20,741 nt of DNA from a virus (Duplodnaviria > Heunggongvirae > Uroviricota > Caudoviricetes). A program made the translations under genes and the position numbers. Every line of letters begins with the position of its first letter. The first letter of the stretch is position 1. The stretch lies in the IMG/VR virus record IMGVR_UViG_2630968533_000002; one strand, written 5' to 3'. The notes under the pieces are model-generated. The model searched no databases. It saw nothing but the letters and a program-made list of their open reading frames with translations, and was not told the origin of the DNA. Positions 1-20,741 of the stretch are shown here, in pieces.

Positions 1-837
1 CTATTTTTTCTCTGTAATTTTTACACTGTTTTCCAACTGCTTGATGCTGACCTGCGGGGTCGGCAACTCCTCAGGCATGGTTCCGCCAAGTTCCTGAATG
101 GTTTGCCTCACCTTGCGACCCACGTCAAAGTGTGTGGTGTTAGCTTGCTGTTTTGAATTCACGCCATCCCGCTTGAGTTTTTCTTCTGTTTGGGTAGCTC
201 GAAAGAGATTAGCCGCCAGTTCTGTTGAACCCATATGATCCAGGATCTTCTGACTCTTTTTCAGCCCCTTCCGCTGATGGATGGCTTTCTGATCTAATCC
301 ACCATACAGTCCCCGGTAACCATGATTCTGAAATATGGCGAAATCGATAGCTGTCGCTACCCCAGCTTGCTGCGCTGCCTCAACTAATTGTTTGTTATGT
401 TCTTTCAACTCATTTCTCAGAAAAAGACGCTTTTCGTCTTCACGAAGTTGCCTGAAAGCTTCATCGTCAGCCAGCTCCTGCCGTCGGGTCTGGATAGCAA
501 AATAAGTTTGCCCTACTGCAATAACCGGTTTCGCAGGGTCGCCGTTTTGTACTACCAGGTAACAGGCATAGCGGGAGAGATGAACATCTTCAAGTTCTCG
601 TTGAGCCCCTGAACCTAATACAACCATTTTGGTGGTTTCAACGAAATGGTCAGATGCAGCTTGATTGCTGGCTTCGCACGCTTGAGTCGCGCGGGCCAGT
701 ACCTTTTGAAAATTGCGCCAGTCCCGATAATCCAGTAACGGTGCCAATTCTCTCGCTGACCAAAATTCTTGCCCTTCAGTGCCATAATGCCGTATCTCTT
801 CAAAAGGTTGATGATGTTCGTTCATTGCCCACTCCAT
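1..837 (-). CDS. dinD: DNA-damage-inducible protein DinD-like; complete, stop at 1-3; alternative start at 825 (MNEHHQPF...)
   Basis: 278-aa ORF whose sequence I recognise from memory as E. coli DinD; canonical LexA box 34-49 bp upstream; GC content typical of core chromosome. Confidence 0.75.
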   Translation of the reverse strand: MEWAMNEHHQPFEEIRHYGTEGQEFWSARELAPLLDYRDWRNFQKVLARATQACEASNQAASDHFVETTKMVVLGSGAQRELEDVHLSRYACYLVVQNGDPAKPVIAVGQTYFAIQTRRQELADDEAFRQLREDEKRLFLRNELKEHNKQLVEAAQQAGVATAIDFAIFQNHGYRGLYGGLDQKAIHQRKGLKKSQKILDHMGSTELAANLFRATQTEEKLKRDGVNSKQQANTTHFDVGRKVRQTIQELGGTMPEELPTPQVSIKQLENSVKITEKK

Positions 838-870: not shown

Positions 871-886
871 CTGTGTTTATATACAG
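871..886. promoter_or_regulatory. LexA (SOS) box CTGTgtttatatACAG upstream of dinD
   Basis: Read directly: perfect CTGT-N8-ACAG palindrome with AT-rich spacer, matching the LexA consensus, placed just upstream of the dinD start. Confidence 0.6.
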
Positions 887-1011: not shown

Positions 1012-1320
1012 GTGAAGGCTGAAAAGTAAGAATTGGCGTTACGAGTTATTCAATTGGATCTGTTTGTAGAGTATTGGCTTCAATGCCGCATTGTAGCTGG
1101 TTTCTTCCTAATGCGATTTTTGATTATGTACACCCTTATGTACACGGTTTTTTCGGGTGCTTTGGTCAAAAGCCATTGTCTACATCGCTCACGATCGAGG
1201 TGTGTAACCCTGTTCAGGCTTGTTGTACTGCGCACGCGTATTGCTCGTGAAATTGATTGTGAGAGGTAAGTTAATCGCTATTTTTAGGAAGTGTATTTAC
1301 ATAGAATGGGGAAACGGACT

Positions 1321-1351
1321 AAAAAGCTGCCTGTATGATAGGCAGCTTTTT
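1321..1351. terminator. Bidirectional intrinsic terminator (AAAAAGCTGCC-loop-GGCAGCTTTTT)
   Basis: Read directly: perfect 11-bp inverted repeat with 9-nt loop, A5 on the 5' side and T5 on the 3' side; 18 bp downstream of the stop of the 254-aa gene. Confidence 0.65.
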
Positions 1352-1368
1352 AGGCTTACTTATTCCAT

Positions 1369-2133
1369 TTATCGCATTTGTGCTTCTTCTTCACGAATAC
1401 GCTGAATAGCATTTGCTAAACGCAATTTGGAGTTGTCATCCCAATCTTGGGTTCTTTGGCCTACTGGTGCACATGGGGTAATTGAACCACTAACCAGCAT
1501 TTGACGAACTTCAGCAACTTCTTGTGCACTGATAGAAACGTGTGGTGAATGTGGGTTTTTGGTATCCATAATCAGCCCCCTCTGCAATAGAGCTTCGTTT
1601 ACTTCGCTAATGGTTGAAACAGAGTCTTCTACTAATGATGCGTTAGTCCTGAAGTCTAAAAAACGTACAGTGCCGCCAGTGTATGGGTCAAGCTTTTTAG
1701 ATTCTTCAATTGCTGATCTTGCGCAATGGCTATACATCCAGTTTTGCGCAGCAGCACCGCATCCTGAGCCTGTAAAGACAGCGAACAGTTCTTCCGTTTC
1801 GTTATTTTTTACAACTAATTTTTGACCTTTATCAAAAATCACTTCATTAGTTGATTTTTTCACAATATGTAAATTTACCGATTGACCAGTAGGTAAAACA
1901 ACTGGTGGTTCTTGTTGAGATAGGTCTCCTCGCCACCAATGCTTCCATAACTGAATCAAAAGACCATCACCGGCTAAAAGCATAACAAAATCATTTCGTG
2001 GAGCTAGCTTACCGAAGCCGGTATCGTCAATATACAGGATATGACCATCGTAGCCATGTGGGCTAAGATCAACAGACCACCTAGAGTCGGTCGCTACTAA
2101 GGCGTTAACACGATCATATACCGTTGTAGTCAT
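1369..2133 (-). CDS. Hypothetical 254-aa protein; weak motif-level resemblance to HslV/proteasome-type Ntn-hydrolases
   Basis: Long ORF, GC lower than the dinD flank (by eye about 42%), own terminator. N-terminus MTTTV, an AGDG motif and a GSGCGAAAQ motif recall HslV (MTTIV..AGDG..GSGG.YA.AAA) from memory; not verified. Confidence 0.6.
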   Translation of the reverse strand: MTTTVYDRVNALVATDSRWSVDLSPHGYDGHILYIDDTGFGKLAPRNDFVMLLAGDGLLIQLWKHWWRGDLSQQEPPVVLPTGQSVNLHIVKKSTNEVIFDKGQKLVVKNNETEELFAVFTGSGCGAAAQNWMYSHCARSAIEESKKLDPYTGGTVRFLDFRTNASLVEDSVSTISEVNEALLQRGLIMDTKNPHSPHVSISAQEVAEVRQMLVSGSITPCAPVGQRTQDWDDNSKLRLANAIQRIREEEAQMR

Positions 2134-2302
2134 TATAGATGCTCATAAACCATTAAGGTTCAAAAACTCTATAGCAAATGTTGAAAGAAGCAAATTGATT
2201 ATACTTATTAATGCGATGTTGGGTGTCTTGATCTTTTAGCTGATGCTATGCGAAAGCAACGACAGTTTTGCTTGGTCATTGTAGTAAGACACCTCCTTTG
2301 CT

Positions 2303-2590
2303 TTATCGTAGCTGGCAATCTTTATCGCGATAACGCCTGAAGTACCCTCTCGCTTCCTCATCCATACCAAGAGCCGAATGAGTCCGCTTAACTGCCTGTC
2401 TTAAATCTCCGAATCTGTCTGTAGTTGCTGGTGGGCGTGCCGCCTTACGGATACATTCAGAGCGTCTGTTTGCTGCATGTTCACGTTCTTTATCGCCATC
2501 TGCCAGCATCATGACTTCTGCCCATCGTGCGGCAGCTCTCCGGTATAGCCCTTTTGACTCCAGCTCTTCAGCTTTCCTGTCCCTTATCAT
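2303..2590 (-). CDS. Small regulator, PerC-family-like (95 aa)
   Basis: ORF with N-terminal AEELESKGLYRRAAARW motif that I recall as typical of PerC/Pch-type activators; start lies 37-63 bp from a tandem operator array. Confidence 0.5.
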   Translation of the reverse strand: MIRDRKAEELESKGLYRRAAARWAEVMMLADGDKEREHAANRRSECIRKAARPPATTDRFGDLRQAVKRTHSALGMDEEARGYFRRYRDKDCQLR

Positions 2591-4107: not shown

Positions 4108-4722
4108 GTGAGCAGAAAAGATACTAAAGAATTGCTAACTATCTGCATGGTGTACTTTTCAATTTATTTTTGTGCATACATGATAGTCCCAGATGAGTTT
4201 GAACATGGCAGTATTATTTATTCCATAACATTCTATTTTTTAGAGCTAACACCAATTTTGGCTATCCTTTTGGCAATACATATTTATTTTTCCTTAAAAA
4301 AAGAATCGACTAATTGGGAGAAGGTATGGAGAGACAGAGGATTTCTAACATCACCTAAAGATGATGCATATGAGAGTGATTTTTCTGACTTTATAACAAA
4401 CTACTACTCCAGCGAACAATTCAAAAATAGACTGTCTGATGTTTGGGAAACAGCAATGTATTCTATAGGGATTATATTATTGATACTTACTGGTATTGCT
4501 CAATATGTTTTTAACATTGACTTATCATTAAATCCTGAAAATTTAATATCGCCATTGATTTTTGGTGAGATATTGATCTTCTCATTCGGAATTTTCTTGA
4601 GTGTTGTTCTCTGCTCATTATGCAAGCTACTGACTAACAGGTATCCGGGTGAAGCAAGGAGAGCAAGAAAGGCAAATCCATATTATCTTTTATTTCCTAA
4701 TGGAGACAGCAGAGATATCTAA
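4108..4722 (+). CDS. Polytopic inner-membrane protein (204 aa, GTG start), very low GC; candidate superinfection-exclusion or abortive-infection protein
   Basis: AAAGGGGG Shine-Dalgarno 6 nt upstream of GTG; about six hydrophobic helices with a roughly 70-aa charged loop; AT-rich codons (by eye near 30% GC) against a roughly 50% background; convergent with the 701-aa gene. Confidence 0.6.
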   Translation: MSRKDTKELLTICMVYFSIYFCAYMIVPDEFEHGSIIYSITFYFLELTPILAILLAIHIYFSLKKESTNWEKVWRDRGFLTSPKDDAYESDFSDFITNYYSSEQFKNRLSDVWETAMYSIGIILLILTGIAQYVFNIDLSLNPENLISPLIFGEILIFSFGIFLSVVLCSLCKLLTNRYPGEARRARKANPYYLLFPNGDSRDI

Positions 4723-4741: not shown

Positions 4742-6847
4742 TTATTGAGCTTCTTTTTGTGATGCCTGTGCGACTCTGGTGAGCGATTGTGTGACCGTAC
4801 TGATCGCTCTGTCATATGCTGTGCTACCTTTTGGCGTATTTGCCAGACGTAACAAGGCATTTCGTATAACAGGGCTTTCGTATGCCTTCGCTGCTCCGCC
4901 TACGGCACCAGCAGCAGGAACAACAAACGCAGCCGTTTTTAGCATCCCCGCTAATACTGCTGCGTTTATGATGCCACCACCAACTAACAATCCATAAAGC
5001 TGCTGACCATTTAAGTTTTGAACGTTCGCTTTTGCCGCGTGTCTTGTATCGTTGAGGTATTTAATAACGCCGTCCAGTTCCTTTCCATGTACGCCTTTAA
5101 AGAAAGTTGCTGATTGCTTCCTGTTCCGGTGTAACGCATTAATAAACTTTTCAACACTAATATTTCCAGACGGATCAGTCGCCTTATCTACAGCATTCTG
5201 AACTATGGCTGCTCGTGCGTTTTGCCTACCATTGTCATCCAGAAGCCTGTAAAGCTGAGAACGTTCTGATGGGCTTTGGCTAAAAACGAGTTTTGTTACA
5301 TCCTCAGGCGTGGCCTTGCCGCTGGCTATTGCCTTTTGAACGCGCGTTCTTCCCATCATGTCATTGAATTTAGACCATGAGCGATCAACCCTTGCCATAT
5401 TAATGGCTTCGTCTGCTCCAAGATTTTTGGCTACGGCTTTTTTCATATCCGCCGTATATGCCTTGTAGATAATATCGCTGGCTTTCTGGAGCGTATCTTT
5501 ATCAACAGTGTCAGATGACGCCATAAATCTCTTTCGAAGATCGGTTCTGTTTTCCCTCGCCAGACGCAGGTCATTTGGTCCGCTGGTGATATCGTCTTTA
5601 AATTGCTGCAAGACTTTTACCGCGGCTCTATCCTGAGATTTGCCCGGGCGGCTTAACACGGCAATCTGATTGTCGATAGCTTTTACCGTGTTTGAGAGAT
5701 CGACAGGGGTATCCCCCATAGCGTCAATTATGCGGTTATATCGCTTTCCTGCTGCCTCAATGAATTTTTGTTGCCCTTTAGTCGCAGATTCATAAAGCTG
5801 TTTATCAGAAATGCCACCCAGACCATCGCTAAATGTTCTGACTAAATTTTCTCGTGCTTGTTGTTGATTCAGCCGATTCTTACCGGTTCCAAAAAAAGGA
5901 ACTCTTTCGCCTAATGTCTGAGCCTGACTCTGCATAAAGGTTTTATCTTTCAGCATGTCACTGGTCATTAACGGCAGATTTCTTTCCGATGCAAAGTCGA
6001 CAGCAGCCTTTGCTTCAGGCGACATATCACCACGAACAGCCCTCGAAACCGCACTCGCTGTATTTTCCAGCCCCTTACCAATACCACCAATGCCAGCAGA
6101 AATTACCGTTTGTAACGGATCAATACCTTCTCCACCAGCAAGGCTGGTGGCTCCCTGTAGTGCTAAATCTGTAGCTGCTGATTTTCCTATGGCACCAAGC
6201 ACCGTTCCAGCCCTGCCCGCTGGTGTAAACGCCAGCGCATTAGCCAGAAACGATGCCACGTCTTGCGGCGATAAACCCGGCTTGTTCAGAGCATAATCAC
6301 CGGATGGCAGGGAAACGATAGTGTTACCCTTCTCATCCTGCCTTAATTTCGCTCCCATGCTCTGAAGAATCTTTTCCTGAGATGCGTCAGAGCCGAAAAG
6401 TTGAGACCATCGAGCTTTTAGAGCATCCATGCTGAGTGAGGTTAACTCTGGGGCAAGGTCGACATTTTGCAGTCTCTCCATCTCTGGAGTCATTCGGCTT
6501 TCGCCTGTTATAGCATCGCGCATCGCAGCCCCAAGACTGGCTCCCTGTTCTGCTGAACGCTCAAGCCCCTCTCTTTGCTGAGTAGCTAACTTTGCATACC
6601 CTGACGCAAGAGAATTATCAGATGATGTATGTTGAATATTTTGAGTTGCTGATTGGGCTCGGTCTATTTCATTCGTTGATGGTAGTGGATAGGCAGCATA
6701 AAAAGCCTGCTTAGCCTGTGCTACACTTTCTCCGGCTTGCGGGGCAACGACTTCATTGAAGTATTGCTCCTGAGCCTGCGCTTTTTGTTCTGGTGCTAAC
6801 GCCTGATACTGTGGAGAGGCGATAACATCTTTCCATGCTTTAGCCAT
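4742..6847 (-). CDS. 701-aa Ala/Gln/Gly-rich protein with hydrophobic Gly-rich C-terminus; P22 gp16-like ejection (DNA-transfer) protein candidate
   Basis: Long ORF, start overlaps upstream stop; composition and position as last gene of the 153/225/473/701 series; similarity to gp16 inferred from size, order and composition only. Confidence 0.7.
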   Translation of the reverse strand: MAKAWKDVIASPQYQALAPEQKAQAQEQYFNEVVAPQAGESVAQAKQAFYAAYPLPSTNEIDRAQSATQNIQHTSSDNSLASGYAKLATQQREGLERSAEQGASLGAAMRDAITGESRMTPEMERLQNVDLAPELTSLSMDALKARWSQLFGSDASQEKILQSMGAKLRQDEKGNTIVSLPSGDYALNKPGLSPQDVASFLANALAFTPAGRAGTVLGAIGKSAATDLALQGATSLAGGEGIDPLQTVISAGIGGIGKGLENTASAVSRAVRGDMSPEAKAAVDFASERNLPLMTSDMLKDKTFMQSQAQTLGERVPFFGTGKNRLNQQQARENLVRTFSDGLGGISDKQLYESATKGQQKFIEAAGKRYNRIIDAMGDTPVDLSNTVKAIDNQIAVLSRPGKSQDRAAVKVLQQFKDDITSGPNDLRLARENRTDLRKRFMASSDTVDKDTLQKASDIIYKAYTADMKKAVAKNLGADEAINMARVDRSWSKFNDMMGRTRVQKAIASGKATPEDVTKLVFSQSPSERSQLYRLLDDNGRQNARAAIVQNAVDKATDPSGNISVEKFINALHRNRKQSATFFKGVHGKELDGVIKYLNDTRHAAKANVQNLNGQQLYGLLVGGGIINAAVLAGMLKTAAFVVPAAGAVGGAAKAYESPVIRNALLRLANTPKGSTAYDRAISTVTQSLTRVAQASQKEAQ

Positions 6848-8268
6848 TAATCACCCCATAGTGAAGAAAAATTACTGCTGGCTGCTGGCTGTGATACCTG
6901 CTCAGATTGCGGCAATGTCTGCGACGAAGAAGAAGTTCCTCTGTCAACTGCTGAAATAACCCGCAAAGCATCATAAGCTCGACCAGAAGCAGCTTTCAGC
7001 GAATTGAACTGGTTTTCCATCTTCCTACGCTTGGTATCAATGGTTTTTGTGGAATCACCAGGCTGAGGGAAATACATTTGATAATATTTGGACATTTCAG
7101 CTGGTAGGATAGATGCCCCTGTTTCCTGACGGAGTATTGCCATTATTGCGTCATTAGCATTAACAACGTATTGCTGCTCTGTTGGGCTGAGCGTTAAGTT
7201 AGCCAGCGTCCCATTACCCAAAGCATTATTAATGATCGCCACTCGCTGTGGGCTAAGCTGGTCTTTCAGTGTATCTATTGAATCAAGAGCATCCCTAACT
7301 CTGTATGCAAATCCAGCAGCTTTTTTAGCCCCTTCTGGCGACTTTTCCATGATCTTTTGGGCTGTTGGCAAAGCTATTGGACGAAACCCATCTCCAGATA
7401 TTGGCTGGTTTAGTTTTCCCTGCTCTTCACTTCCGTCTGTGTAGTATTTTGTGACAGTGCCATCATCGTTTTCTCTAACACTCATTAATTTTTTGGCGTT
7501 TGTATTAATTCCAGCCGCTGCCGCAAATGCCGCAGCCCCCTCTGGATCCGCCTTTAACATTTGCGCGTACTGATTGTAATTCTGCATTGCGGCTGTTGGT
7601 GCATATGCTGACGTTAACGCATTTGCTCGGCTAATATCCTGCCCTCTCGCCTGAAGTGCTTCTCCAGCCTGATTGCTGCGGATTGTCTCTGCCAACTTGC
7701 CACGCTCAATATCCCGACCTTCCATTCGATCTTTGATATCGAAGTACTTCTCATGACCGAGAGAAAACAGTGCCATACTACCAGCAAGCCGCTGGAATCC
7801 CTGTGGATCATTAACATGCATTTCGGCAACAGACTCAGGAGAAATCCCCAAGCGACGCATTTCATCTTCGTTATCTGCTATGAATTTTCCAAATGCCCCA
7901 GTTCCGAGCGAAGATGCGATTTGAGCACTAGTCGCAAGATGACCAATAGAATTTCTCTGGTCGTCATCAATAAAGCCCATCCCTTTCTGAACGCTTTCAA
8001 ATTCTTCTGGATACTCAGAAATAAGACTGCGCATTTTGTTTCTGTCTCCAGACTCAAAAGCCCCGGCATATGCTTTCTGAAACTCTGCTTTACGCTGTTG
8101 TTGACGTGCCTGCTGATTAATCTCAGCAACGCCTCTTATCCCCTGTAGCGCCATTAAACCTACGTTTGGCTGCTGCTGATACTGCACAGGCTGAGGAACG
8201 GAAGAACGAGGAGCATTATCATTTTGCGGTGCCATGCTAGGCAGCCCGCCAAGTTGCCATGTCGCCAT
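6847..8268 (-). CDS. 473-aa protein; P22 gp20-like ejection protein candidate
   Basis: Long ORF translationally coupled to both neighbours; size close to P22 gp20 (about 471 aa, from memory). Confidence 0.7.
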   Translation of the reverse strand: MATWQLGGLPSMAPQNDNAPRSSVPQPVQYQQQPNVGLMALQGIRGVAEINQQARQQQRKAEFQKAYAGAFESGDRNKMRSLISEYPEEFESVQKGMGFIDDDQRNSIGHLATSAQIASSLGTGAFGKFIADNEDEMRRLGISPESVAEMHVNDPQGFQRLAGSMALFSLGHEKYFDIKDRMEGRDIERGKLAETIRSNQAGEALQARGQDISRANALTSAYAPTAAMQNYNQYAQMLKADPEGAAAFAAAAGINTNAKKLMSVRENDDGTVTKYYTDGSEEQGKLNQPISGDGFRPIALPTAQKIMEKSPEGAKKAAGFAYRVRDALDSIDTLKDQLSPQRVAIINNALGNGTLANLTLSPTEQQYVVNANDAIMAILRQETGASILPAEMSKYYQMYFPQPGDSTKTIDTKRRKMENQFNSLKAASGRAYDALRVISAVDRGTSSSSQTLPQSEQVSQPAASSNFSSLWGD

Positions 8269-8945
8269 TAGAATCCAAGCCCCCCAACAAGACCAATAAG
8301 CCCACCACCAATAGCGCCTGCCGCAGTACCTATTCCAGGAACAACGGAACCAAGTTGAGCACCCGCTAAAGCGCCTGATGCTGCCCCACCAATACCACGC
8401 GCAAGACTGGATGGCTGCTGCGCCTGACCTGCACGAATAGCGCCAAGCCCCTGCAAGAGTTGTCCGGTATTATTGGCGTAGTTTTGCCCTGCCGTTGCCT
8501 GCCCTGATGCCGCATTCATCCCGACATTTAGCAGGTTTCCATAATTTTGCATTTGCCCACTAAGCCAATTGTTATAAAGCATGGGCGCAATGGAAGATAA
8601 CTGGTTACTGGTAGCTGTTGAGCCAAGCCCCCCGGTAGCTTCTGCTGAGACAAGGTTCTGATAACGGGCCTGATCTGCCTGTGTTTTATATAAACCAGAA
8701 CCAAAGAAATCATTCGCGGCTTTATTCTGCCCTTCCAGAGTCATCAGTCCTTGTAGTTGTTGTAAAGCAGGCAATCCGACTTCTGCATACGGCTTGAGAT
8801 TATTCATCACCGTATTCCACTGCTCGCGCTGCAAATCAATTGCCTGCTGCTGGGCCTTCGCCTGAGCTTTAGAGGCACCACCATCACCGCCTTTTTCGTA
8901 TACGGCACGATTGAGATGTTTATGAGCTATATGGGTAATTAACAT
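8268..8945 (-). CDS. 225-aa protein with Gly-rich hydrophobic C-terminal tail; P22 gp7-like ejection protein candidate
   Basis: ORF overlapping neighbours; C-terminus GIGGAASGALAGAQLGSVVPGIGTAAGAIGGGLIGLVGGLGF; size close to P22 gp7 (about 229 aa, from memory). Confidence 0.7.
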   Translation of the reverse strand: MLITHIAHKHLNRAVYEKGGDGGASKAQAKAQQQAIDLQREQWNTVMNNLKPYAEVGLPALQQLQGLMTLEGQNKAANDFFGSGLYKTQADQARYQNLVSAEATGGLGSTATSNQLSSIAPMLYNNWLSGQMQNYGNLLNVGMNAASGQATAGQNYANNTGQLLQGLGAIRAGQAQQPSSLARGIGGAASGALAGAQLGSVVPGIGTAAGAIGGGLIGLVGGLGF

Positions 8946-9400
8946 TCGCTGAATTCCTTATATTGTTGCCGAGTTAACTGATAAAGCGTTACGCCGACGG
9001 GTTTACCACATCTGATATAAGCATCATCAAGGTGACCAACACGGGTAGCGCCAAGCAAACGGATAATTGCCCGTCCGTATTTGGTGGTGTCAGGAACCAT
9101 GGTAATGCTGTTAAGGAATGGTGAGTTTTCGAGAAGCCATTTGCAGAATAATCGATGCCCTTGCAGTGCATATTCACCACGGAATCCGGGGTCGTACACC
9201 GCATGGCATTCAACAATGCTATGCCAGAAGTTACGCACTTCATGAACGCCAGCCAGCACCAATCCTTCGTAGATGCCGAGATATACCGCATCAGGCTTGA
9301 TGTAGTACGTGTGCCCCGGCTCAACAATATTTTCGGTATTGCCAGGATCGTTAAGAAAGGCCTGTAATCGCACAGGGTTATCAATAAATTTTAGTTCCAT
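8939..9400 (-). CDS. 153-aa protein, first large gene of the operon; gp14-like position
   Basis: ORF overlapping the 225-aa gene by 7 bp; function unknown; assignment by position only. Confidence 0.6.
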   Translation of the reverse strand: MELKFIDNPVRLQAFLNDPGNTENIVEPGHTYYIKPDAVYLGIYEGLVLAGVHEVRNFWHSIVECHAVYDPGFRGEYALQGHRLFCKWLLENSPFLNSITMVPDTTKYGRAIIRLLGATRVGHLDDAYIRCGKPVGVTLYQLTRQQYKEFSEC

Positions 9401-9578: not shown

Positions 9579-10071
9579 AACGCCCCCTTAGAACTGTATA
9601 AAACAACAGTTATTATAGTTTCATAAAACGCAATATTCATCATGTTTATTGCAAAATGTGAAACGAATAGCACAAGAAAATGCCACCGCTCAGTAGCTGG
9701 TGGCATCGTTCTGTGTGTCAAGTTTTGACAGGTTTTTTATGGACTCTAAAAACTATATTTATGGTGTCGCATTACTCTTCATGGCAGGCGCTTTCCAGTT
9801 CTGCCCTTGCTTCTGGCTCCATTGGTAATTTGATTCGCGATCAGCTATGCGGATGGTTTGCTGAACAGGCATAACAACATCTCAGAGGCTATTTTTTGAA
9901 CTACGAAAATTTCGTAGTGCTCACCTTCAAAAACGTCACGCCCTTGTACACTGGATTTTACAAAAGTCTCGTAAAACTCTTTCCTGTTCTGGGCTATGTG
10001 CCAAACCGCAGCGAATACCTCCGTCTGCCAGATGAGCAAAACATACCTTATAAAGAAAATCGCTGTTTTTG

Positions 10072-11314: not shown

Positions 11315-13669
11315 TTAAAAAACATCATAACCCCCCATACCGATCAGACGGGCAAACGCAGCCTGTAGAACTCCGACCTCTGGTAGTTCGTAGAACACGC
11401 CATTCCCACGGTCTGGTCTTCCATGCTTCACCAGCCCCATTTGTGCAAGTGACTTACCCAGTAGTGATCTGGCTGCTGGTTCTTTAAGCTTTTCCCCACG
11501 CTCAAGCGACCACGCTACAAATCGACTAACCATATCCTTTGCAAACAAACGGACTTCGCCATTAAACGGAGGTTCATTGATTAGCTCGCCATAAAGAAAC
11601 AATTCAACGCCAGACAGCCCCAGCAAGATTTCTTCACGTAAGGCATCGGTCTGTGGCGCTCGTTGAGGGTCAAAACCTGATAGATCCACCCCTTTAAGAT
11701 GCCAAAGCAACTTTGCGGCACCGCCATCATTAAGCCAACTGTACAGCCGATCAAAATACTCCCGGCTCTGTGCTTTTTCAGGAGATGGCTCAAGCACGAG
11801 ATAGCGGCGCTCTCTTATCCCTGCCTGTAATACCTGTGTGCTGTTACTGGCAAATATCAACCGGGCAAAATTCGGCATTGGTTCAGCATCAATTCCCTTG
11901 CGCTCAAGGTTAAACGTCGGTTCGCTAATAATCGCTTTAAGTCTGTCAGCTTCAGACGGCTTGTGGATCGTCACTTCGTCAGCAAATACCAGTAGCTTGT
12001 TAGCAAGTATTGAATTGAAGCGCCCTGAAATATGTCCCGCCCCGTTAATGTGGGCGGCGTACTGCCCCAGTATTTGCAGCAGCGGTTTAACCGTTGTGCC
12101 TTTCCCTGTGCCCGGGACAGATTTCATTACGATTGCCACGGACGGTTTTTCATCAGGCTTTTGGATAATGTGCGCCATCCACTGGATAAGATATTGGTAT
12201 GCCTCTTCATTCCCGGCACAGACAACCTGCAACAGGTGATTAAGGTATACCGTGCAATCTCCTTCAATTGGTTCCAGTGCCAGCCCCTCATACAGATTAA
12301 AAACATCGTCAGGGCATTTGTCTGGTACTGGATAAAATCCTACGCCTCCTGGCTTGTAGTTCTTCCCACTCCATGACAGCCACGCCGATCCCGCCAGCTT
12401 TCTGGCGACTCTCGGTTTATGATGAAAATAATGCTGAAATTGTGATAAATCCTCGAAAACGTGCGATACACCGCCGGTTTGAGAAGGCTTTAGCGACACC
12501 ACCTTGTGTTTCCCGCCGATGGTGACATGCGTAAACGTCCGGTTGATTTCTTCGAGGACAGCAATTTCATCATCGCTTAACACCTCGCCAGAACTGATCT
12601 CATTCAGCGCCCCGACTGACTGTTTGTGATTTTTCACCTGCGCCCCTTTCCCCCGTGGCTGGTACATCGAATCTTTAAATGCTGCTGTGGCTGCCGCCAG
12701 CCCGTGTTGTTGGTGATAGTCGTTCCAGTCGGCTTTATAGTCAGTCGGTGGCAGAGACACCCAGCCAGCTACGGAAATAGCGGCCCTCTCTGCGGCATCT
12801 TTCCCCGTGTTGATCCCTCCACTTTCGGAGTTTCCTTGCTGGTGATCGTTATCTGCGGCAATGATGATTTGTGCCTGTGGATATGTTCTGCGCATGACTT
12901 CCGCTACTGGCAACAGGTTGCCAGCGTCGATTGCTGCCACTGTCATTGCGTCAGGGCGAATTAAATGGCACGACAGGGCGGTAGCCACCCCCTCAGCAAT
13001 TATGATGCTGTGAGGTCGTTTCTGTGCGTTTATGGCGTGATATGCCCCCCGCTTTGCCGAACCTGTCAGGAGTCTTTTTTCACCATGTGAGGTAATAGTC
13101 TGTGCTGCTGTGACTGCGCCGGATTTATCCACCAGCGCCAGCAATAGAGATCCATCTGGCAACACGGGAAATGTAAAATCACCTACCCCTTTCGCAACCA
13201 GATAATCAGATTTGCTGTTTACAGCCTTTCTGCGCATGTCATCAAACTGACGGGAAAACGTATCCCGTCTTTGTTGTTCATCCTTCTCTGCCCTTTTCAG
13301 GCGCTCCTGTTCGCGTCGCTGGCGCTCGGTTTCCAGTTGTTCCCGTTTCTGGCTGGTGGCTTCTGGTGTTTCTGTTGTCCGGTAATCAATACCCAGAACA
13401 TCAGCGGCAAGCAGCGCCGCCTCTGTTGTGTCGCAGTTATTTACGCGTTTAATTAAATCCAGCCCATCACCAGCGCCGCACTGATTACAGATGAAGCTAC
13501 CGCGCCCGTTGTCATCGAACCGGAATCGATCTTTGCCCCCACATGCAGGGCAGGGAGCATGACGGCGAGGAGAGTCAGGGACATTTATGTTCAGGCAGCC
13601 CAGCACATGAGGCCAGTTGTTTTCAGACGCACTGATAACCTGACGGATAAGATCAATGTTTCGCATCAC
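11315..13669 (-). CDS. P4 alpha / D5-type primase-helicase (784 aa)
   Basis: N-terminal CxxC..CxxC zinc-ribbon (APCPACGG...ICNQCGAGDG), TOPRIM-like AADND motif, C-terminal helicase Walker A (VPGTGKGTT) and Walker B (LLVFADEV). Confidence 0.85.
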   Translation of the reverse strand: MMRNIDLIRQVISASENNWPHVLGCLNINVPDSPRRHAPCPACGGKDRFRFDDNGRGSFICNQCGAGDGLDLIKRVNNCDTTEAALLAADVLGIDYRTTETPEATSQKREQLETERQRREQERLKRAEKDEQQRRDTFSRQFDDMRRKAVNSKSDYLVAKGVGDFTFPVLPDGSLLLALVDKSGAVTAAQTITSHGEKRLLTGSAKRGAYHAINAQKRPHSIIIAEGVATALSCHLIRPDAMTVAAIDAGNLLPVAEVMRRTYPQAQIIIAADNDHQQGNSESGGINTGKDAAERAAISVAGWVSLPPTDYKADWNDYHQQHGLAAATAAFKDSMYQPRGKGAQVKNHKQSVGALNEISSGEVLSDDEIAVLEEINRTFTHVTIGGKHKVVSLKPSQTGGVSHVFEDLSQFQHYFHHKPRVARKLAGSAWLSWSGKNYKPGGVGFYPVPDKCPDDVFNLYEGLALEPIEGDCTVYLNHLLQVVCAGNEEAYQYLIQWMAHIIQKPDEKPSVAIVMKSVPGTGKGTTVKPLLQILGQYAAHINGAGHISGRFNSILANKLLVFADEVTIHKPSEADRLKAIISEPTFNLERKGIDAEPMPNFARLIFASNSTQVLQAGIRERRYLVLEPSPEKAQSREYFDRLYSWLNDGGAAKLLWHLKGVDLSGFDPQRAPQTDALREEILLGLSGVELFLYGELINEPPFNGEVRLFAKDMVSRFVAWSLERGEKLKEPAARSLLGKSLAQMGLVKHGRPDRGNGVFYELPEVGVLQAAFARLIGMGGYDVF

Positions 13670-16657: not shown

Positions 16658-16833
16658 TGGTTAACCTCTGCAAACTCCTTCATGAAACGCGCCAGCGGTT
16701 GTACGCATGGCGATTGATACCCGTCGCGATAAAACGTCACTCGGTTGTGAGACACGCTTTCGACAGTAACGAGTGCTCCGTGGGCATCTTTGTAGCGTTT
16801 TTGAGGTTGTGGTGTTCCTGTTGGCTTAGACAT
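16654..16833 (-). CDS. Small conserved prophage protein (59 aa, DUF4222-like); the ORF track gives a longer version to 16920
   Basis: ATG at 16833 with GGAGG Shine-Dalgarno 6 nt upstream, overlapping the stop of the antirepressor-like gene; family assignment from memory, low certainty. Confidence 0.45.
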   Translation of the reverse strand: MSKPTGTPQPQKRYKDAHGALVTVESVSHNRVTFYRDGYQSPCVQPLARFMKEFAEVNQ

Positions 16834-17659
16834 TGACCGCCTCCAGACGCTTGGCGAGCCAGCGTTGCGACAGGCGGGTGAGTTCTCCTTTGCGCTGCTC
16901 ATATTCCATGCCCATATCAATTAACGTGATATTGGTGCTTTCGAGATATGAGAGGTGCTCAAGTTGTTCTGCGTTCATATGGTCGCGAGGTTCGCCAGAA
17001 TAGCCATTTATCCGCGCCCACTGCTTAGCAGTTAGCCCACCAAGAACGATACGAGAAATCATATTGCTCTCGTTTGTGTAGTGGTGTTGCTGCGTCGTTT
17101 TCCCCTGCTCGGCACGGGCCATATTCAGCGCATCGCACATTGGCTTAAAGTTGTTTGCGGCACTGATACGGGCTTTTAGCTGGCGACGATAGCGGGCGGC
17201 GATTTCAGGCACGCTACGCTGTAATTCTTCCTCGCACTGGATGAAATAACGACGGATAGCGCGACCCTGATCATTGCGTTCGATCATTGCCAGTTCTTTC
17301 GCCATTCCGACACTTAACAGATAGTCTTTGCCGGGTCTGCCAGACTGCTTAATCTTGCTGTAAGCCGCGCCATTCGGGCTTTTCCCCAAATTTGGGGAAA
17401 TTGTTTTATGGACTGAGTAATCGTGCCCAATGGTGAAGTCATATTCAGAGATGCGATCAGTGATCCATGTAGAGAAGTCTTTTCCCACGCCCAACGCTTT
17501 GTGTAACGCTTTTGCGCTAACAATATTGGTTTCACGCCCACCGATATGACCAGGAATAACCGGGACAATTGCGGCAAATTCATTACCGTTAATTGTGCCC
17601 AGAGAGGCGTTCAGATGAGGGGCGGCCTCAGAAATTAATCTGCTTTTTTCGATGTTCAT
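16826..17659 (-). CDS. Phage antirepressor-like protein (Ant/KilAC-type), 277 aa
   Basis: Motif LLSVGMAKELAMIERNDQGRAIRRYFIQCEEE matches my memory of the conserved Ant/KilA-C domain core; not verified by search. Confidence 0.5.
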   Translation of the reverse strand: MNIEKSRLISEAAPHLNASLGTINGNEFAAIVPVIPGHIGGRETNIVSAKALHKALGVGKDFSTWITDRISEYDFTIGHDYSVHKTISPNLGKSPNGAAYSKIKQSGRPGKDYLLSVGMAKELAMIERNDQGRAIRRYFIQCEEELQRSVPEIAARYRRQLKARISAANNFKPMCDALNMARAEQGKTTQQHHYTNESNMISRIVLGGLTAKQWARINGYSGEPRDHMNAEQLEHLSYLESTNITLIDMGMEYEQRKGELTRLSQRWLAKRLEAVNV

Positions 17660-18420: not shown

Positions 18421-19386
18421 CTACCCCTTACCGTTGGCGGCAGCACGTAAGTGTCTCAAAATCACATCTTCATTTGTGATTGCTAACGGTGGAATTTCGT
18501 CTTTATGAGCCACTATGCAATCCCGCCACTTCTCAGGGCTTATTTCTTTCTTTTTGCCACGGCATTCATCAGGATACTTTGACAAAAGATATATTGCTGA
18601 TTTGAAAAGTTTTTCCCTGTTTTCAGCATGTCTCTCGGCATTATGGTTGCTATTTTTTATTTCAGGTATTAGTTCCTGTTCTACCGCCATTTCGTATCGT
18701 TTTTTGCTCTTAGCTGCGTCAAAACTTCCATTAACCTTTGCGTCGTGAAGGTATTCTAAATCAGCCTTTGTTATATAAATGTTTTTATCTGACAGGCTAC
18801 TCAGGTGAATCTGGGAACTTTGCATTTTGAATTTATATAGATCACAATCAAATGTTGCTTCAAGTCGCACATATGGCTCTCCACATTCTTGTGAATGATA
18901 ATGTCGTTTTGTACTACCGCGTACACGCAACAATCCACATGCAATTGATTTTCTTACAATAAAAGAGTTTTTGCCAATTTGTTCAAAAACATTTTTATTG
19001 TCTCTGTCTTCAACTGTCAGTGGTTTATGTGCATAAAATAGCTCATAAGCACCGCTTTCAGATGCTGGGATATAAACTTCGTTGCTTGCGCTGGTAATAA
19101 GAAAAGGAAATGTAAACCTTACTTCTTCTGGGTACATAAGTAATAAATCAGTTATAAAATCAGCATCTTTTTTGAAGTGGATGGTGGCATCAGCTTCAAT
19201 GAAATCAAGAAAGTCAGCATAGACATAAAAGTCTATATGTAGTCTATCTTTCCAATGCCATATATCATCAATTTCACAATTTAATAATTTTGATGCTCGC
19301 TCTATCGTGCAGTAGTCCAAAGGTGGAATACCTGATTCCTGCCATAAATTTCTATGCACCGCAGTTGTTTCATGAGAGTCGTTCAT
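18421..19386 (-). CDS. Orphan AT-rich 321-aa protein of unknown function (cargo gene between int and alpA)
   Basis: Long ORF with AAAGGTGA Shine-Dalgarno-like sequence; GC clearly below neighbours (by eye about 37%); own terminator; no recognisable domain. Confidence 0.65.
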   Translation of the reverse strand: MNDSHETTAVHRNLWQESGIPPLDYCTIERASKLLNCEIDDIWHWKDRLHIDFYVYADFLDFIEADATIHFKKDADFITDLLLMYPEEVRFTFPFLITSASNEVYIPASESGAYELFYAHKPLTVEDRDNKNVFEQIGKNSFIVRKSIACGLLRVRGSTKRHYHSQECGEPYVRLEATFDCDLYKFKMQSSQIHLSSLSDKNIYITKADLEYLHDAKVNGSFDAAKSKKRYEMAVEQELIPEIKNSNHNAERHAENREKLFKSAIYLLSKYPDECRGKKKEISPEKWRDCIVAHKDEIPPLAITNEDVILRHLRAAANGKG

Positions 19387-19481: not shown

Positions 19482-20741
19482 TTAGTTCGCCCTTCTGAGA
19501 GGCGTTACGTTGTAGTCTTTTCCGCTTTCCAGTGCCACCAGCAGATCAGCCCACTGTGCCAGTGCTGCTTTACGCTCATTAAAATACTGATGGCGGTTAT
19601 AAATCCCCTCTACGCCCTTAATGCGATGATTGAGGCATCGTTCCGCCACAACAGGATCAACACCCAACGCTGCTAAATGAGTACGTGCGGTGCGTCGGAA
19701 GTCGTGAATCGTGAAATTAGGCACATCCGGCATTTCGGCGCGAACCTTAGCCAGTGCTACGGGTAAAGTGCTTTCCTGAATATGTGGGATCATTCTGTTT
19801 TGCATCTTCCTGGCTGGAAGCACCCATGCGCTATTACATGAAAAGGTGTGTAGCTCTCTCAACCATTCAACGGCTGGAGAAGGTAGAGGTATATCAATAG
19901 GGTCCCCGTTTTTGCTGCGTTCTTCCGGCAAATGCCATACAGCACTATCTAAATCAAACTCTTCCCATCGTGCGGCGCATAACTCCATCTTACGAACGCA
20001 TAGTGCCAGCAATAGCTTAAATGTCAGTTCGTTTTGGCGGCTGAATCCTTTTGCGGTGCGCATAGCCTCGAATAGCCTGATAAGCTCATCGCGAGTTAGC
20101 CAACGGTCGCGGGAAACCTCTTTACCACCAGCATCAGATACTTCAAACGCTGAACAAGGGTTTATCTCCAGAGCATGGCGTTTTATCCCATAGTCAAAGA
20201 TACGGCGTGTCCAGCGTAATACATCTGTTGCTATCGTTGGTGCTCCTCGGTCAACGATACCTTTCAACATGTCGTCAATGTGGCGTGGCTTAACGTCCTC
20301 CACCTTCATATGCCCAATGCAGGGGTTAATATCCTTATCAATTCTCCGGCGAAGGATATCGGGATGTTTCCATCTCGGAAGTATCTGGCGCTCGAAGTAT
20401 TCGGAGGCCAGATCTGAAACACGCATGGCGTTTTTCTCAGCCTCCATTTTTGCCAGTGCTTCAGCTTTTCGTTCCTGTTTCTCTGCTGCTACGTCATAGC
20501 CAAGAGCAACTCTGGCTGACAGCTCTTTTGCTGTTTCTCTGGCTTTTGATAGTGACAGTTCGGAGTAAGAGCCTATAACCATAGCCCGCTGCTTTCCTGC
20601 GAGCTTATAGCGGAATCGCCAGAACGGGACTGTGTAGTTTTTGGGGTAGCAAATATAAAGGCCGTTGCCGTCTGCCTTGCCATCAAATCTGTCTCCCGCC
20701 TTTATCCATGCGCGGATCTGCATATCTGTGAGTTTTGGCAT
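19482..20741 (-). CDS. int: Tyrosine site-specific integrase, P4/CP4-57 (IntA) family; complete, ATG at the last bases of the window
   Basis: N-terminal PKLTD...WRFRY aligns with the N-terminus of IntA-type integrases from memory; C-terminal HDFRRT and GIYNRHQY catalytic His-x-x-Arg / Tyr motifs. Confidence 0.9.
   Translation of the reverse strand: MPKLTDMQIRAWIKAGDRFDGKADGNGLYICYPKNYTVPFWRFRYKLAGKQRAMVIGSYSELSLSKARETAKELSARVALGYDVAAEKQERKAEALAKMEAEKNAMRVSDLASEYFERQILPRWKHPDILRRRIDKDINPCIGHMKVEDVKPRHIDDMLKGIVDRGAPTIATDVLRWTRRIFDYGIKRHALEINPCSAFEVSDAGGKEVSRDRWLTRDELIRLFEAMRTAKGFSRQNELTFKLLLALCVRKMELCAARWEEFDLDSAVWHLPEERSKNGDPIDIPLPSPAVEWLRELHTFSCNSAWVLPARKMQNRMIPHIQESTLPVALAKVRAEMPDVPNFTIHDFRRTARTHLAALGVDPVVAERCLNHRIKGVEGIYNRHQYFNERKAALAQWADLLVALESGKDYNVTPLRRAN

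Follow-up and report, generated by a model that had tools for sequence, protein, structure and literature searches.

The window analysed here, which is the whole 20,741-nucleotide (nt) stretch of the IMG/VR virus record IMGVR_UViG_2630968533_000002, encodes next to dinD a protein of 254 amino acids (aa) that we assign, on the strength of structural modeling and with high confidence, to the proteasome-type N-terminal nucleophile (Ntn) hydrolases, in both fold and enzyme class, its activity being predicted. Proteasome-family enzymes are textbook housekeeping proteases that need rings and AAA+ partners, and the compact member described here occurs without such a partner. Across alpha-, beta- and gamma-Proteobacteria the gene is very probably a solitary, horizontally mobile accessory cargo gene (a "moron") of temperate elements, at least four kinds of which, unrelated to one another, have passed it on horizontally. 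The best overall explanation, which we advance tentatively and would not yet call probable, is that the gene encodes a Thr1 protease of predicted activity which, produced in the lysogen, acts against superinfecting phages by excluding or aborting them.

Fold and family assignment

Among the PHROGs, residues 1-165 of the 254-aa protein match phrog_1040, annotated as "peptidase HslV family" (E = 2.8e-13). From 5.8 billion proteins, a search retrieved 80 clusters (90% identity) of approximately 250-aa "hypothetical proteins" from Proteobacteria, and an alignment of 56 of these clusters was used to generate an AlphaFold model with a predicted local distance difference test score (pLDDT) of 94.3 and a predicted template modeling score (pTM) of 0.89. 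The first-pass annotation, which had been made from the sequence alone, named an unrelated predicted fold as grounds for abandoning its proposal; instead, the model adopts the alpha-beta-beta-alpha Ntn sandwich of the proteasome type, and Foldseek agrees. Against the PDB, catalytically active beta5 subunits are top-ranked (E = 2.5e-5), and about 140 residues of the model align to proteasome beta subunits, BPH and HslV. Against the viral models of BFVD, Foldseek retrieves phage proteins of 131-200 aa named "Proteasome subunit beta" and "ATP-dependent protease subunit".

Structurally, the modeled core comprises eleven strands (S1-S11) and the helices H1 (57-68), H3 (125-135) and H4 (138-145), and has no H2: a single helix (57-68) lies between S6 and S7 and is followed by a loop (69-84) and then by a strand. 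All true HslV homologues bear the Proteasome family PF00227, which does not detect the window protein. Published divergent proteasome homologues are likewise missed by standard models (Fuchs, Alva & Lupas 2021; PMC8665760). Comparison of the family profile with E. coli HslV alone using hhalign gave a probability of 3.8%; because the HslV profile is shallow, with an effective number of sequences (Neff) of 1.3, the hhalign comparisons with HslV constitute a weak negative. In a phmmer search of PDB sequences, the trypanosome mitoribosomal protein mS26 matched residues 145-251 (E = 0.006), a match that the family profile does not reproduce and that we attribute to chance.

The resemblance had been described in the first-pass annotation as confined to motifs and perhaps coincidental. 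Given the significant profile match, the fold searches and the family-wide conservation presented below, the motif resemblance is not due to chance. The description of the protein as proteasome/HslV-like needs to be divided: the proteasome-type fold and active site are borne out, whereas identity with HslV itself is contradicted by the lack of a PF00227 or HslV match, of H2 and of an HslU-like partner, and by the presence of an extra extension. On sequence grounds, the protein is best described as a divergent phage-type (PPH/RPC type) proteasome homologue and not as HslV proper.

Conservation of the active site

Among 1.84 billion cluster representatives, 535 relatives were detected with a profile at E <= 1e-3, at least 183 of which (full-length clusters, 50% identity) score E <= 1e-30; the best 150 listed are nearly all about 250 aa long and are matched end to end. 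Conservation was counted in 219 near-full-length members. T2 is kept in 207 of the 211 homologues with an aligned N-terminus, always within M-T-T, so that the conservation of this threonine, which had been proposed as a check on the assignment, is borne out. The N-terminal pattern of the family is M-T-T-[NT]-[VAI], without a propeptide, and strand S1 of the model starts at residue 3, with T2 directly after the initiator Met. Removal of Met ahead of Thr is known, for example, from E. coli HslV (MTTIVSV...).

The remaining candidate catalytic positions are equally constrained. D16, at the end of S2 in the model, is kept in 213/214 sequences; K42, before S5, in 219/219; and G55, before H1, in 218/219. 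The G122-[ST]123-G124 motif, located before H3, is conserved in 100% of sequences, as are both D149 (after H4) and [ST]152 of the motif D149-x-x-[ST]152-G-G. The locations of Thr1, Asp17, Lys33, Gly47, Ser129, Asp166 and Ser169 in beta subunits are established, and, judged from motif order and predicted secondary structure, T2 would correspond to Thr1, D16 to Asp17, K42 to Lys33, G55 to Gly47, S/T123 to Ser129, D149 to Asp166 and S/T152 to Ser169. The strict conservation of what would be the full beta-subunit catalytic set shows, as far as sequence comparison goes, that the 254-aa protein is a genuine proteasome-like Ntn hydrolase. The two motifs singled out initially are contained in residues 52-59 (LLAGDGLL) and 122-130 (GSGCGAAAQ); the interpretation of AGDG as an HslV hallmark has to be withdrawn, since it corresponds to the Gly47 (oxyanion) region and not to the Asp17 "AGDG" of HslV.

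The C-terminal extension

The Ntn core is followed by a C-terminal extension in which G186, M189, A222-P223 and W231 are conserved. No Pfam or PDB sequence match was found for residues 172-254. In the full-length model the pLDDT of the extension exceeds 92, except for a dip to 68 near residues 221-230, whereas the C-terminal 87 residues folded alone reach a pLDDT of only 75.7 and a pTM of 0.34. Because it is confidently predicted in the full-length model and poorly when folded alone, the extension seems to be core-dependent, and the modeling suggests that it relies on contacts with the Ntn core rather than constituting an autonomous domain. Given the loss of H2 and the gain of this core-dependent extension, ring assembly is probably altered or absent, and the extension probably contributes to substrate choice.

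Distribution and genomic settings

To define the genomic settings of the family, 63 loci from 27 lineages (65% identity threshold) were collected through exact-protein look-ups, 12 GTDB species genomes and 37 IMG/VR viral contigs. Every source that bears a name belongs to the gamma-, beta- or alpha-Proteobacteria, and in E. coli the gene is present in 42 of 5,426 complete genomes, in every case at >=99% identity and on the chromosome. Across the 63 loci, no open reading frame (ORF) of >=50 aa is widely common within 3 kb on either side of the gene, nor is any ORF of 20-60 aa within 500 nt upstream or 400 nt downstream. No AAA+ partner is encoded in six Pfam-annotated contexts or adjacent to the gene in the window. 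Only repressors of the CI type and umuDC-like morons recur as neighbours, and they do so in a minority of lineages. A CI-type repressor with helix-turn-helix and S24 domains lies directly upstream on the same strand at 14 loci (5/27 lineages); in these loci no terminator was detected between the cI-type gene and the family gene, and strong terminators follow the latter.

Elsewhere the gene occupies a variety of slots. Lambdoid prophages carry it at their ends, beyond the tail-fibre genes; in Pseudomonas it stands beside a lysis cassette; at some loci it adjoins umuDC-like morons; and in Aeromonas prophages it is found between a giant polyvalent protein and arc/ant. At unselected GTDB loci the neighbours include integrases, invertases, repressors, an endolysin, restriction-modification methyltransferases and reverse transcriptases.

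Three groups of loci deserve description in their own right. In the Aeromonas loci L003-L005 and L047, the upstream polyvalent proteins are 1,800-2,860 aa long (InPase, MuF_C and LPD38), a conserved 66-aa ORF separates them from the family gene, and an Arc/KilA-N/ANT module follows downstream. In Vibrio cholerae, a member with 32% identity (L006, 8001-8789; L007, 7036-7824) is the terminal gene after zot in a filamentous prophage with Rep_trans, DUF1293 and Zot, the same post-zot position that is held by ctxAB in CTXphi; even inoviruses thus carry the family gene as cargo. In the beta-proteobacterium Cupriavidus sp. a3, a 442-aa protein with a CLP_protease domain is encoded 60 nt downstream of the family gene on the same strand (L010, 8777-10105), this being the only context with a second protease beside the family gene.

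Proposed role and alternative explanations

In the mechanism that we propose, methionine aminopeptidase would strip Met1 and leave Thr as the N-terminal nucleophile, after which peptide bonds would be cleaved by proteasome-type chemistry, with Lys42 as the proton acceptor, Gly55 contributing the oxyanion hole, and Ser123, Asp149 and Thr152 placing the Thr amine. Substrate selection, or a change of quaternary structure, would fall to the C-terminal extension in place of an unfoldase. Produced in the lysogen from the gene on the prophage or satellite, and in lambdoid phages possibly by read-through from cI in the manner of rexAB, the protease would cut an incoming phage protein or a host target, so that superinfecting phages would be excluded or aborted.

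The placement of the gene is what suggests such a role. Lambda, HK022 and 933W carry exclusion genes (rexAB, nun and stk, respectively) in the slot downstream of cI; in P22, sieA lies in the region past gene 16; and Lit of e14 is a prophage protease that acts as an abortive-infection effector. By analogy with these gene positions, a defence or exclusion role in the lysogen is conceivable, if on balance doubtful. The more specific proposal of a new single-gene anti-phage system, in which a propeptide-less, unfoldase-independent proteasome homologue would use its extension as a specificity or sensor element, is drawn from the same analogy and is likewise a candidate explanation that we regard as somewhat unlikely.

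Several observations weigh against the interpretation of the protein as a proteasome-type exclusion protease. At the level of sequence families, the Pfam scan gave no family at E <= 1, PF00227 (Proteasome) included; the NCBIfam scan gave no match, the HslV equivalog included; and PADLOC (PADLOC-DB 2.0) has no model that matches the protein at E <= 0.1. In PDB sequences, neither proteasome nor HslV chains were retrieved with the family profile, the probability from hhalign against an alignment of 105 HslV sequences was 1.6% (Neff 1.3 for the HslV profile), and the residue equivalences given above derive from motif order and predicted secondary structure. Regarding function, proteasome-family subunits are normally active only in rings, which the modeled loss of H2 and gain of the extension may preclude. 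The cI slot is used by only 5 of the 27 lineages, the others having the gene in other slots. A promoter scan of positions 800-2900 found no sigma-70 match, and a LexA pattern search found no box upstream of the gene in the window. When three divergent members were compared with 50,697 deposited phage genomes by tblastn, no relative was detected, and in the same kind of search the window protein had no match among 72,556 plasmids. Finally, in the literature on phage and prophage proteasome/HslV-like proteins we found no functional study, only the 2021 catalogue.

A different role within the element's own life cycle is unlikely, although part of the gene's surroundings would fit it. The protease might help in induction or in switching between lysis and lysogeny, for instance by removing fragments of repressors or antirepressors or by processing a regulator of phage or host; the gene adjoins CI-type repressors in five lineages and Arc/KilA-N/ANT antirepressor genes in Aeromonas, and its upstream neighbour in the window is the regulator gene perC, encoded on the same strand. 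ImmA/IrrE proteases, which pair with repressors, provide a precedent, and one ImmA/IrrE gene is present in a sister island. A further point in favor comes from Staphylococcus aureus, where ClpX is reported to be required for the removal of cleaved CI (10.1101/2022.09.18.507959). However, other lineages place the gene after zot, at prophage ends or beside lysis and tail genes, it is missing from near-identical sister islands, it does not co-vary with any type of repressor over the 27 lineages, and it has no LexA box.

Still within proteolysis, the enzyme could serve counter-defence or host takeover, degrading a host immunity or stress protein, or poisoning or hijacking host HslU or HslVU, to the benefit of the carrier element. 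The short relatives of the family (PPH, PHROG 1040) occur in lytic and jumbo phages (PMC8665760), where a host-defence role is unlikely, and the protein, having no unfoldase of its own, might borrow that of the host. We nevertheless consider this quite unlikely for the 254-aa family: the slots downstream of cI and at prophage edges are typical of genes expressed in the lysogen rather than early in lytic growth, the family is missing from all of the deposited phage genomes searched, and the missing H2 together with the extra C-terminal extension makes co-assembly with HslV/HslU doubtful.

It is improbable that the fold serves another chemistry, such as that of a sequence-specific peptide ligase or transpeptidase (connectase-like) or of an amidase acting on a non-protein substrate, since in structure the model most closely resembles active beta subunits, BPH and HslV rather than connectase, and the Asp166/Ser169-type motif D-x-x-[ST]-G-G is kept. 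That the motif resemblance is fortuitous, or that the gene is an inactive relic (a spurious ORF or a pseudo-enzyme), a view for which the silence of Pfam, NCBIfam and PADLOC, the ubiquitous "hypothetical protein" label and the weak Shine-Dalgarno sequence might speak, is highly improbable in view of the number and E values of the full-length clusters, the invariant catalytic positions and the highly confident model with a proteasome fold, and chance resemblance is computationally effectively excluded.

The proteasome-type exclusion protease is the reading that we carry forward. The fold assignment itself is probably already known and not new; the contribution of this analysis is a consistent pattern in which the gene stands alone, as a moron of temperate phages, in slots of the exclusion type, and which makes an orphan family a defence candidate that can be tested. 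If the defence interpretation were true, a bacterial proteasome-like protein other than HslVU and the 20S proteasome would for the first time have an immune function and a defined substrate logic. Any phenotype would be the first function for a whole group of orphan proteasome homologues and would bear on how the proteasome fold works without a ring or unfoldase; if there were no phenotype, the gene would stay an annotated curiosity.

The gene and its flanks

The features of the window are summarized in Table 1. The translated N-terminus of the 254-aa protein is MTTTVYDRVN, and RefSeq labels the ORF a hypothetical protein (WP_000214207.1). Its GC content of 0.421 (0.31 at third codon positions, GC3) is lower than that of dinD (0.478; GC3 0.455) and of the whole window (0.467). 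The stem-loop downstream of the gene, CTAAAAAGCTGCCTGTATGATAGGCAGCTTTTTAG, has A/T arms that provide a T-run in both directions. The first-pass annotation had reported the 254-aa ORF beside dinD with its MTTTV start and its AGDG and GSGCGAAAQ motifs, a GC content below that of the flank and a bidirectional terminator, and each of these descriptive points was recovered, through translation, NCBIfam and the analyses just given.

Upstream, the interval between perC and the gene contains a perfect TATAAT (2198-2203), but without an acceptable -35 element, and the Shine-Dalgarno sequence of the ORF is weak. The same interval, which belongs to the variable cassette described below, holds a 23-codon small ORF, and the TATAAT lies directly 3' of its stop codon. 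On the other side, the neighbouring dinD is preceded by a canonical, perfect LexA box, CTGTGTTTATATACAG. As separate observations, PDC-S13, a candidate defence family of PADLOC, matches DinD (E = 6.4e-125), a protein with a Bro-N domain, as does a "Type I specificity subunit" model (E = 2.6e-117), and another LexA-type box is located upstream of the ejection module.

Table 1. Features of the 20,741-nt window and the basis of each annotation.
Feature	Position	Strand	Basis or remark
Proteasome-like (Ntn, Thr1) hydrolase CDS (coding sequence), 254 aa, ATG start	1369..2133	(-)	ORF list, PHROG match, fold searches; stop codon at 1369-1371
Predicted Ntn/proteasome-like core, residues 1-171	1621..2133	(-)	Model secondary structure, structural alignment, conservation in 219 sequences
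C-terminal extension, residues 172-254 (83 residues), three helices and short strands	1372..1620	(-)	Model, conservation
Codon of Thr2, predicted N-terminal nucleophile after initiator Met removal	2128..2130	(-)	Conserved M-T-T start
Symmetric (bidirectional-type) intrinsic terminator	1319..1353	(.)	Terminator scan and sequence; 16 nt past the stop codon of the 254-aa gene
169-nt interval from perC stop codon to start codon of the 254-aa gene	2134..2302	(-)	Sequence, promoter scan, LexA pattern search
Variable single-gene cargo cassette	1263..2320	(.)	Pairwise alignment and annotation of both islands
dinD	1..837	(-)	NCBIfam equivalog, E = 2.2e-152
LexA box of dinD	871-886		
23-codon small ORF (MTKQNCRCFRIASAKRSRHPTSH)	2208-2279	(-)	Preceded by AAGGAGG, 12-nt gap to ATG
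perC, regulator	2303-2590	(-)	
204-aa multi-pass membrane protein	4108-4722	(+)	GC 0.33; directly beyond the gp16-like ejection gene
Complete P22-like ejection module	4742-9400	(-)	gp14/DUF2824 (153 aa), gp7-like (225 aa), gp20-like (473 aa), gp16-like (701 aa)
LexA-type box	9594-9609		
DUF5906 primase	11315-13669		
AntA/AntB-type antirepressor-like protein	16826-17659	(-)	PADLOC candidate family PDC-S22, E = 1e-10
321-aa ORF beside the integrase	18421-19386	(-)	GC 0.373; no Pfam or PHROG match; weak PADLOC PDC-S31 match, E = 0.002
Integrase	19482-20741		
Ash/AntA-type regulators			Within the integrative element

The integrative element

In the window, dinD and yicC are separated by an inserted integrative element of about 19.5 kb, whose last gene, at the dinD-proximal edge, is the proteasome-like gene. 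In an alignment with the sister island of E. coli 23CRST013, homology ends at about position 1262 and restarts at about 2320; this gap therefore defines a single-gene cassette of about 1.06 kb in the window, replaced by about 380 bp of unrelated DNA in the sister island. The latter lacks the proteasome-like gene and encodes, in the same accessory region, an ImmA/IrrE metallo-endopeptidase (L002, 5959-6441) along with other small ORFs. Genes are exchanged in the cargo slots of this family of islands, and different proteases are among them.

Other genes of the element merit mention independently of the hydrolase. The 204-aa membrane protein has a weak match to PHROG 7745, "superinfection exclusion SieA-like" (E = 4.4e-4), in a position that we take to correspond to that of sieA in P22, and it is probably a second exclusion-type cargo gene of the same island. 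Besides the ejection module, the element has an integrase and a primase, but the window contains no gene for a capsid, tail or terminase; the element could be a satellite, or else a remnant from which a P22-like helper obtains ejection proteins. A further orphan cargo gene, the 321-aa ORF, is located at the island's opposite edge.

Comparison with known systems

Among prophage exclusion genes, lambda rexAB, HK022 nun and 933W stk share with the family the slot directly downstream of cI on the same strand, and P22 sieA shares the accessory region beyond the ejection-protein genes. The likeness to rexAB, nun, stk, sieA and Lit consists of low GC content, an own terminator and a patchy distribution; none of these has sequence or fold kinship with the 254-aa protein.

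The classical members of the proteasome family differ from the window protein in architecture as well as in genetic setting. HslV (ClpQ), the peptidase of HslVU (MEROPS T01B), is a 176-aa protein with both H1 and H2 encoded by a housekeeping gene, whereas the 254-aa protein has no H2, bears an extra extension and is encoded by an accessory gene without an adjacent hslU; it also differs from HslV in keeping the proteasome-beta motif D-x-x-[ST]-G-G. Compared with 20S proteasome beta subunits and BPH, it lacks a propeptide, an alpha-type partner and H2, and it escapes detection by PF00227.

Nearer relatives are found in the catalogue of Fuchs, Alva & Lupas (2021), which lists 22 new proteasome-like clusters (PMC8665760). 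Phage-borne homologues were among those already catalogued (PMC8665760), a precedent for the proteasome-like hydrolase in a mobile element that the first-pass annotation had thought unusual. Both PPH and RPC are without helix H2 (PMC8665760). PPH, to which we infer PHROG 1040 to correspond from the sizes and names of the BFVD matches, resembles the window protein in its profile match over the Ntn core, the absence of H2 and the association with phages; it differs in being about 140 aa long and belonging to virulent Caudovirales, whereas the window protein has 254 aa and a conserved C-terminal extension.

The 254-aa family seems to fit best the uncharacterised RPC cluster, with the neighbouring DPH cluster as an alternative; the RPC representative WP_140207863 (KEGG OC.1493145) is not among the accessions listed for 10 clusters of the family. 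RPC is restricted to Proteobacteria, comprises 79 sequences at nr90 and has a C-terminal region that matches no known structure (PMC8665760). With the 254-aa family it shares the proteobacterial range, the absence of H2, an extra C-terminal region without a known structure match, a sequence tie to the short phage-type homologues, and the lack of a propeptide and of an AAA+ partner, and its 79 sequences at nr90 compare with the 80 clusters at 90% identity found here. The authors of the catalogue reported no genomic context hinting at function, and their Table 1 gives no phage mark for RPC (PMC8665760). In this respect the two differ, the 254-aa family being a solitary cargo of temperate phages, filamentous phages and satellites that recurs downstream of cI.

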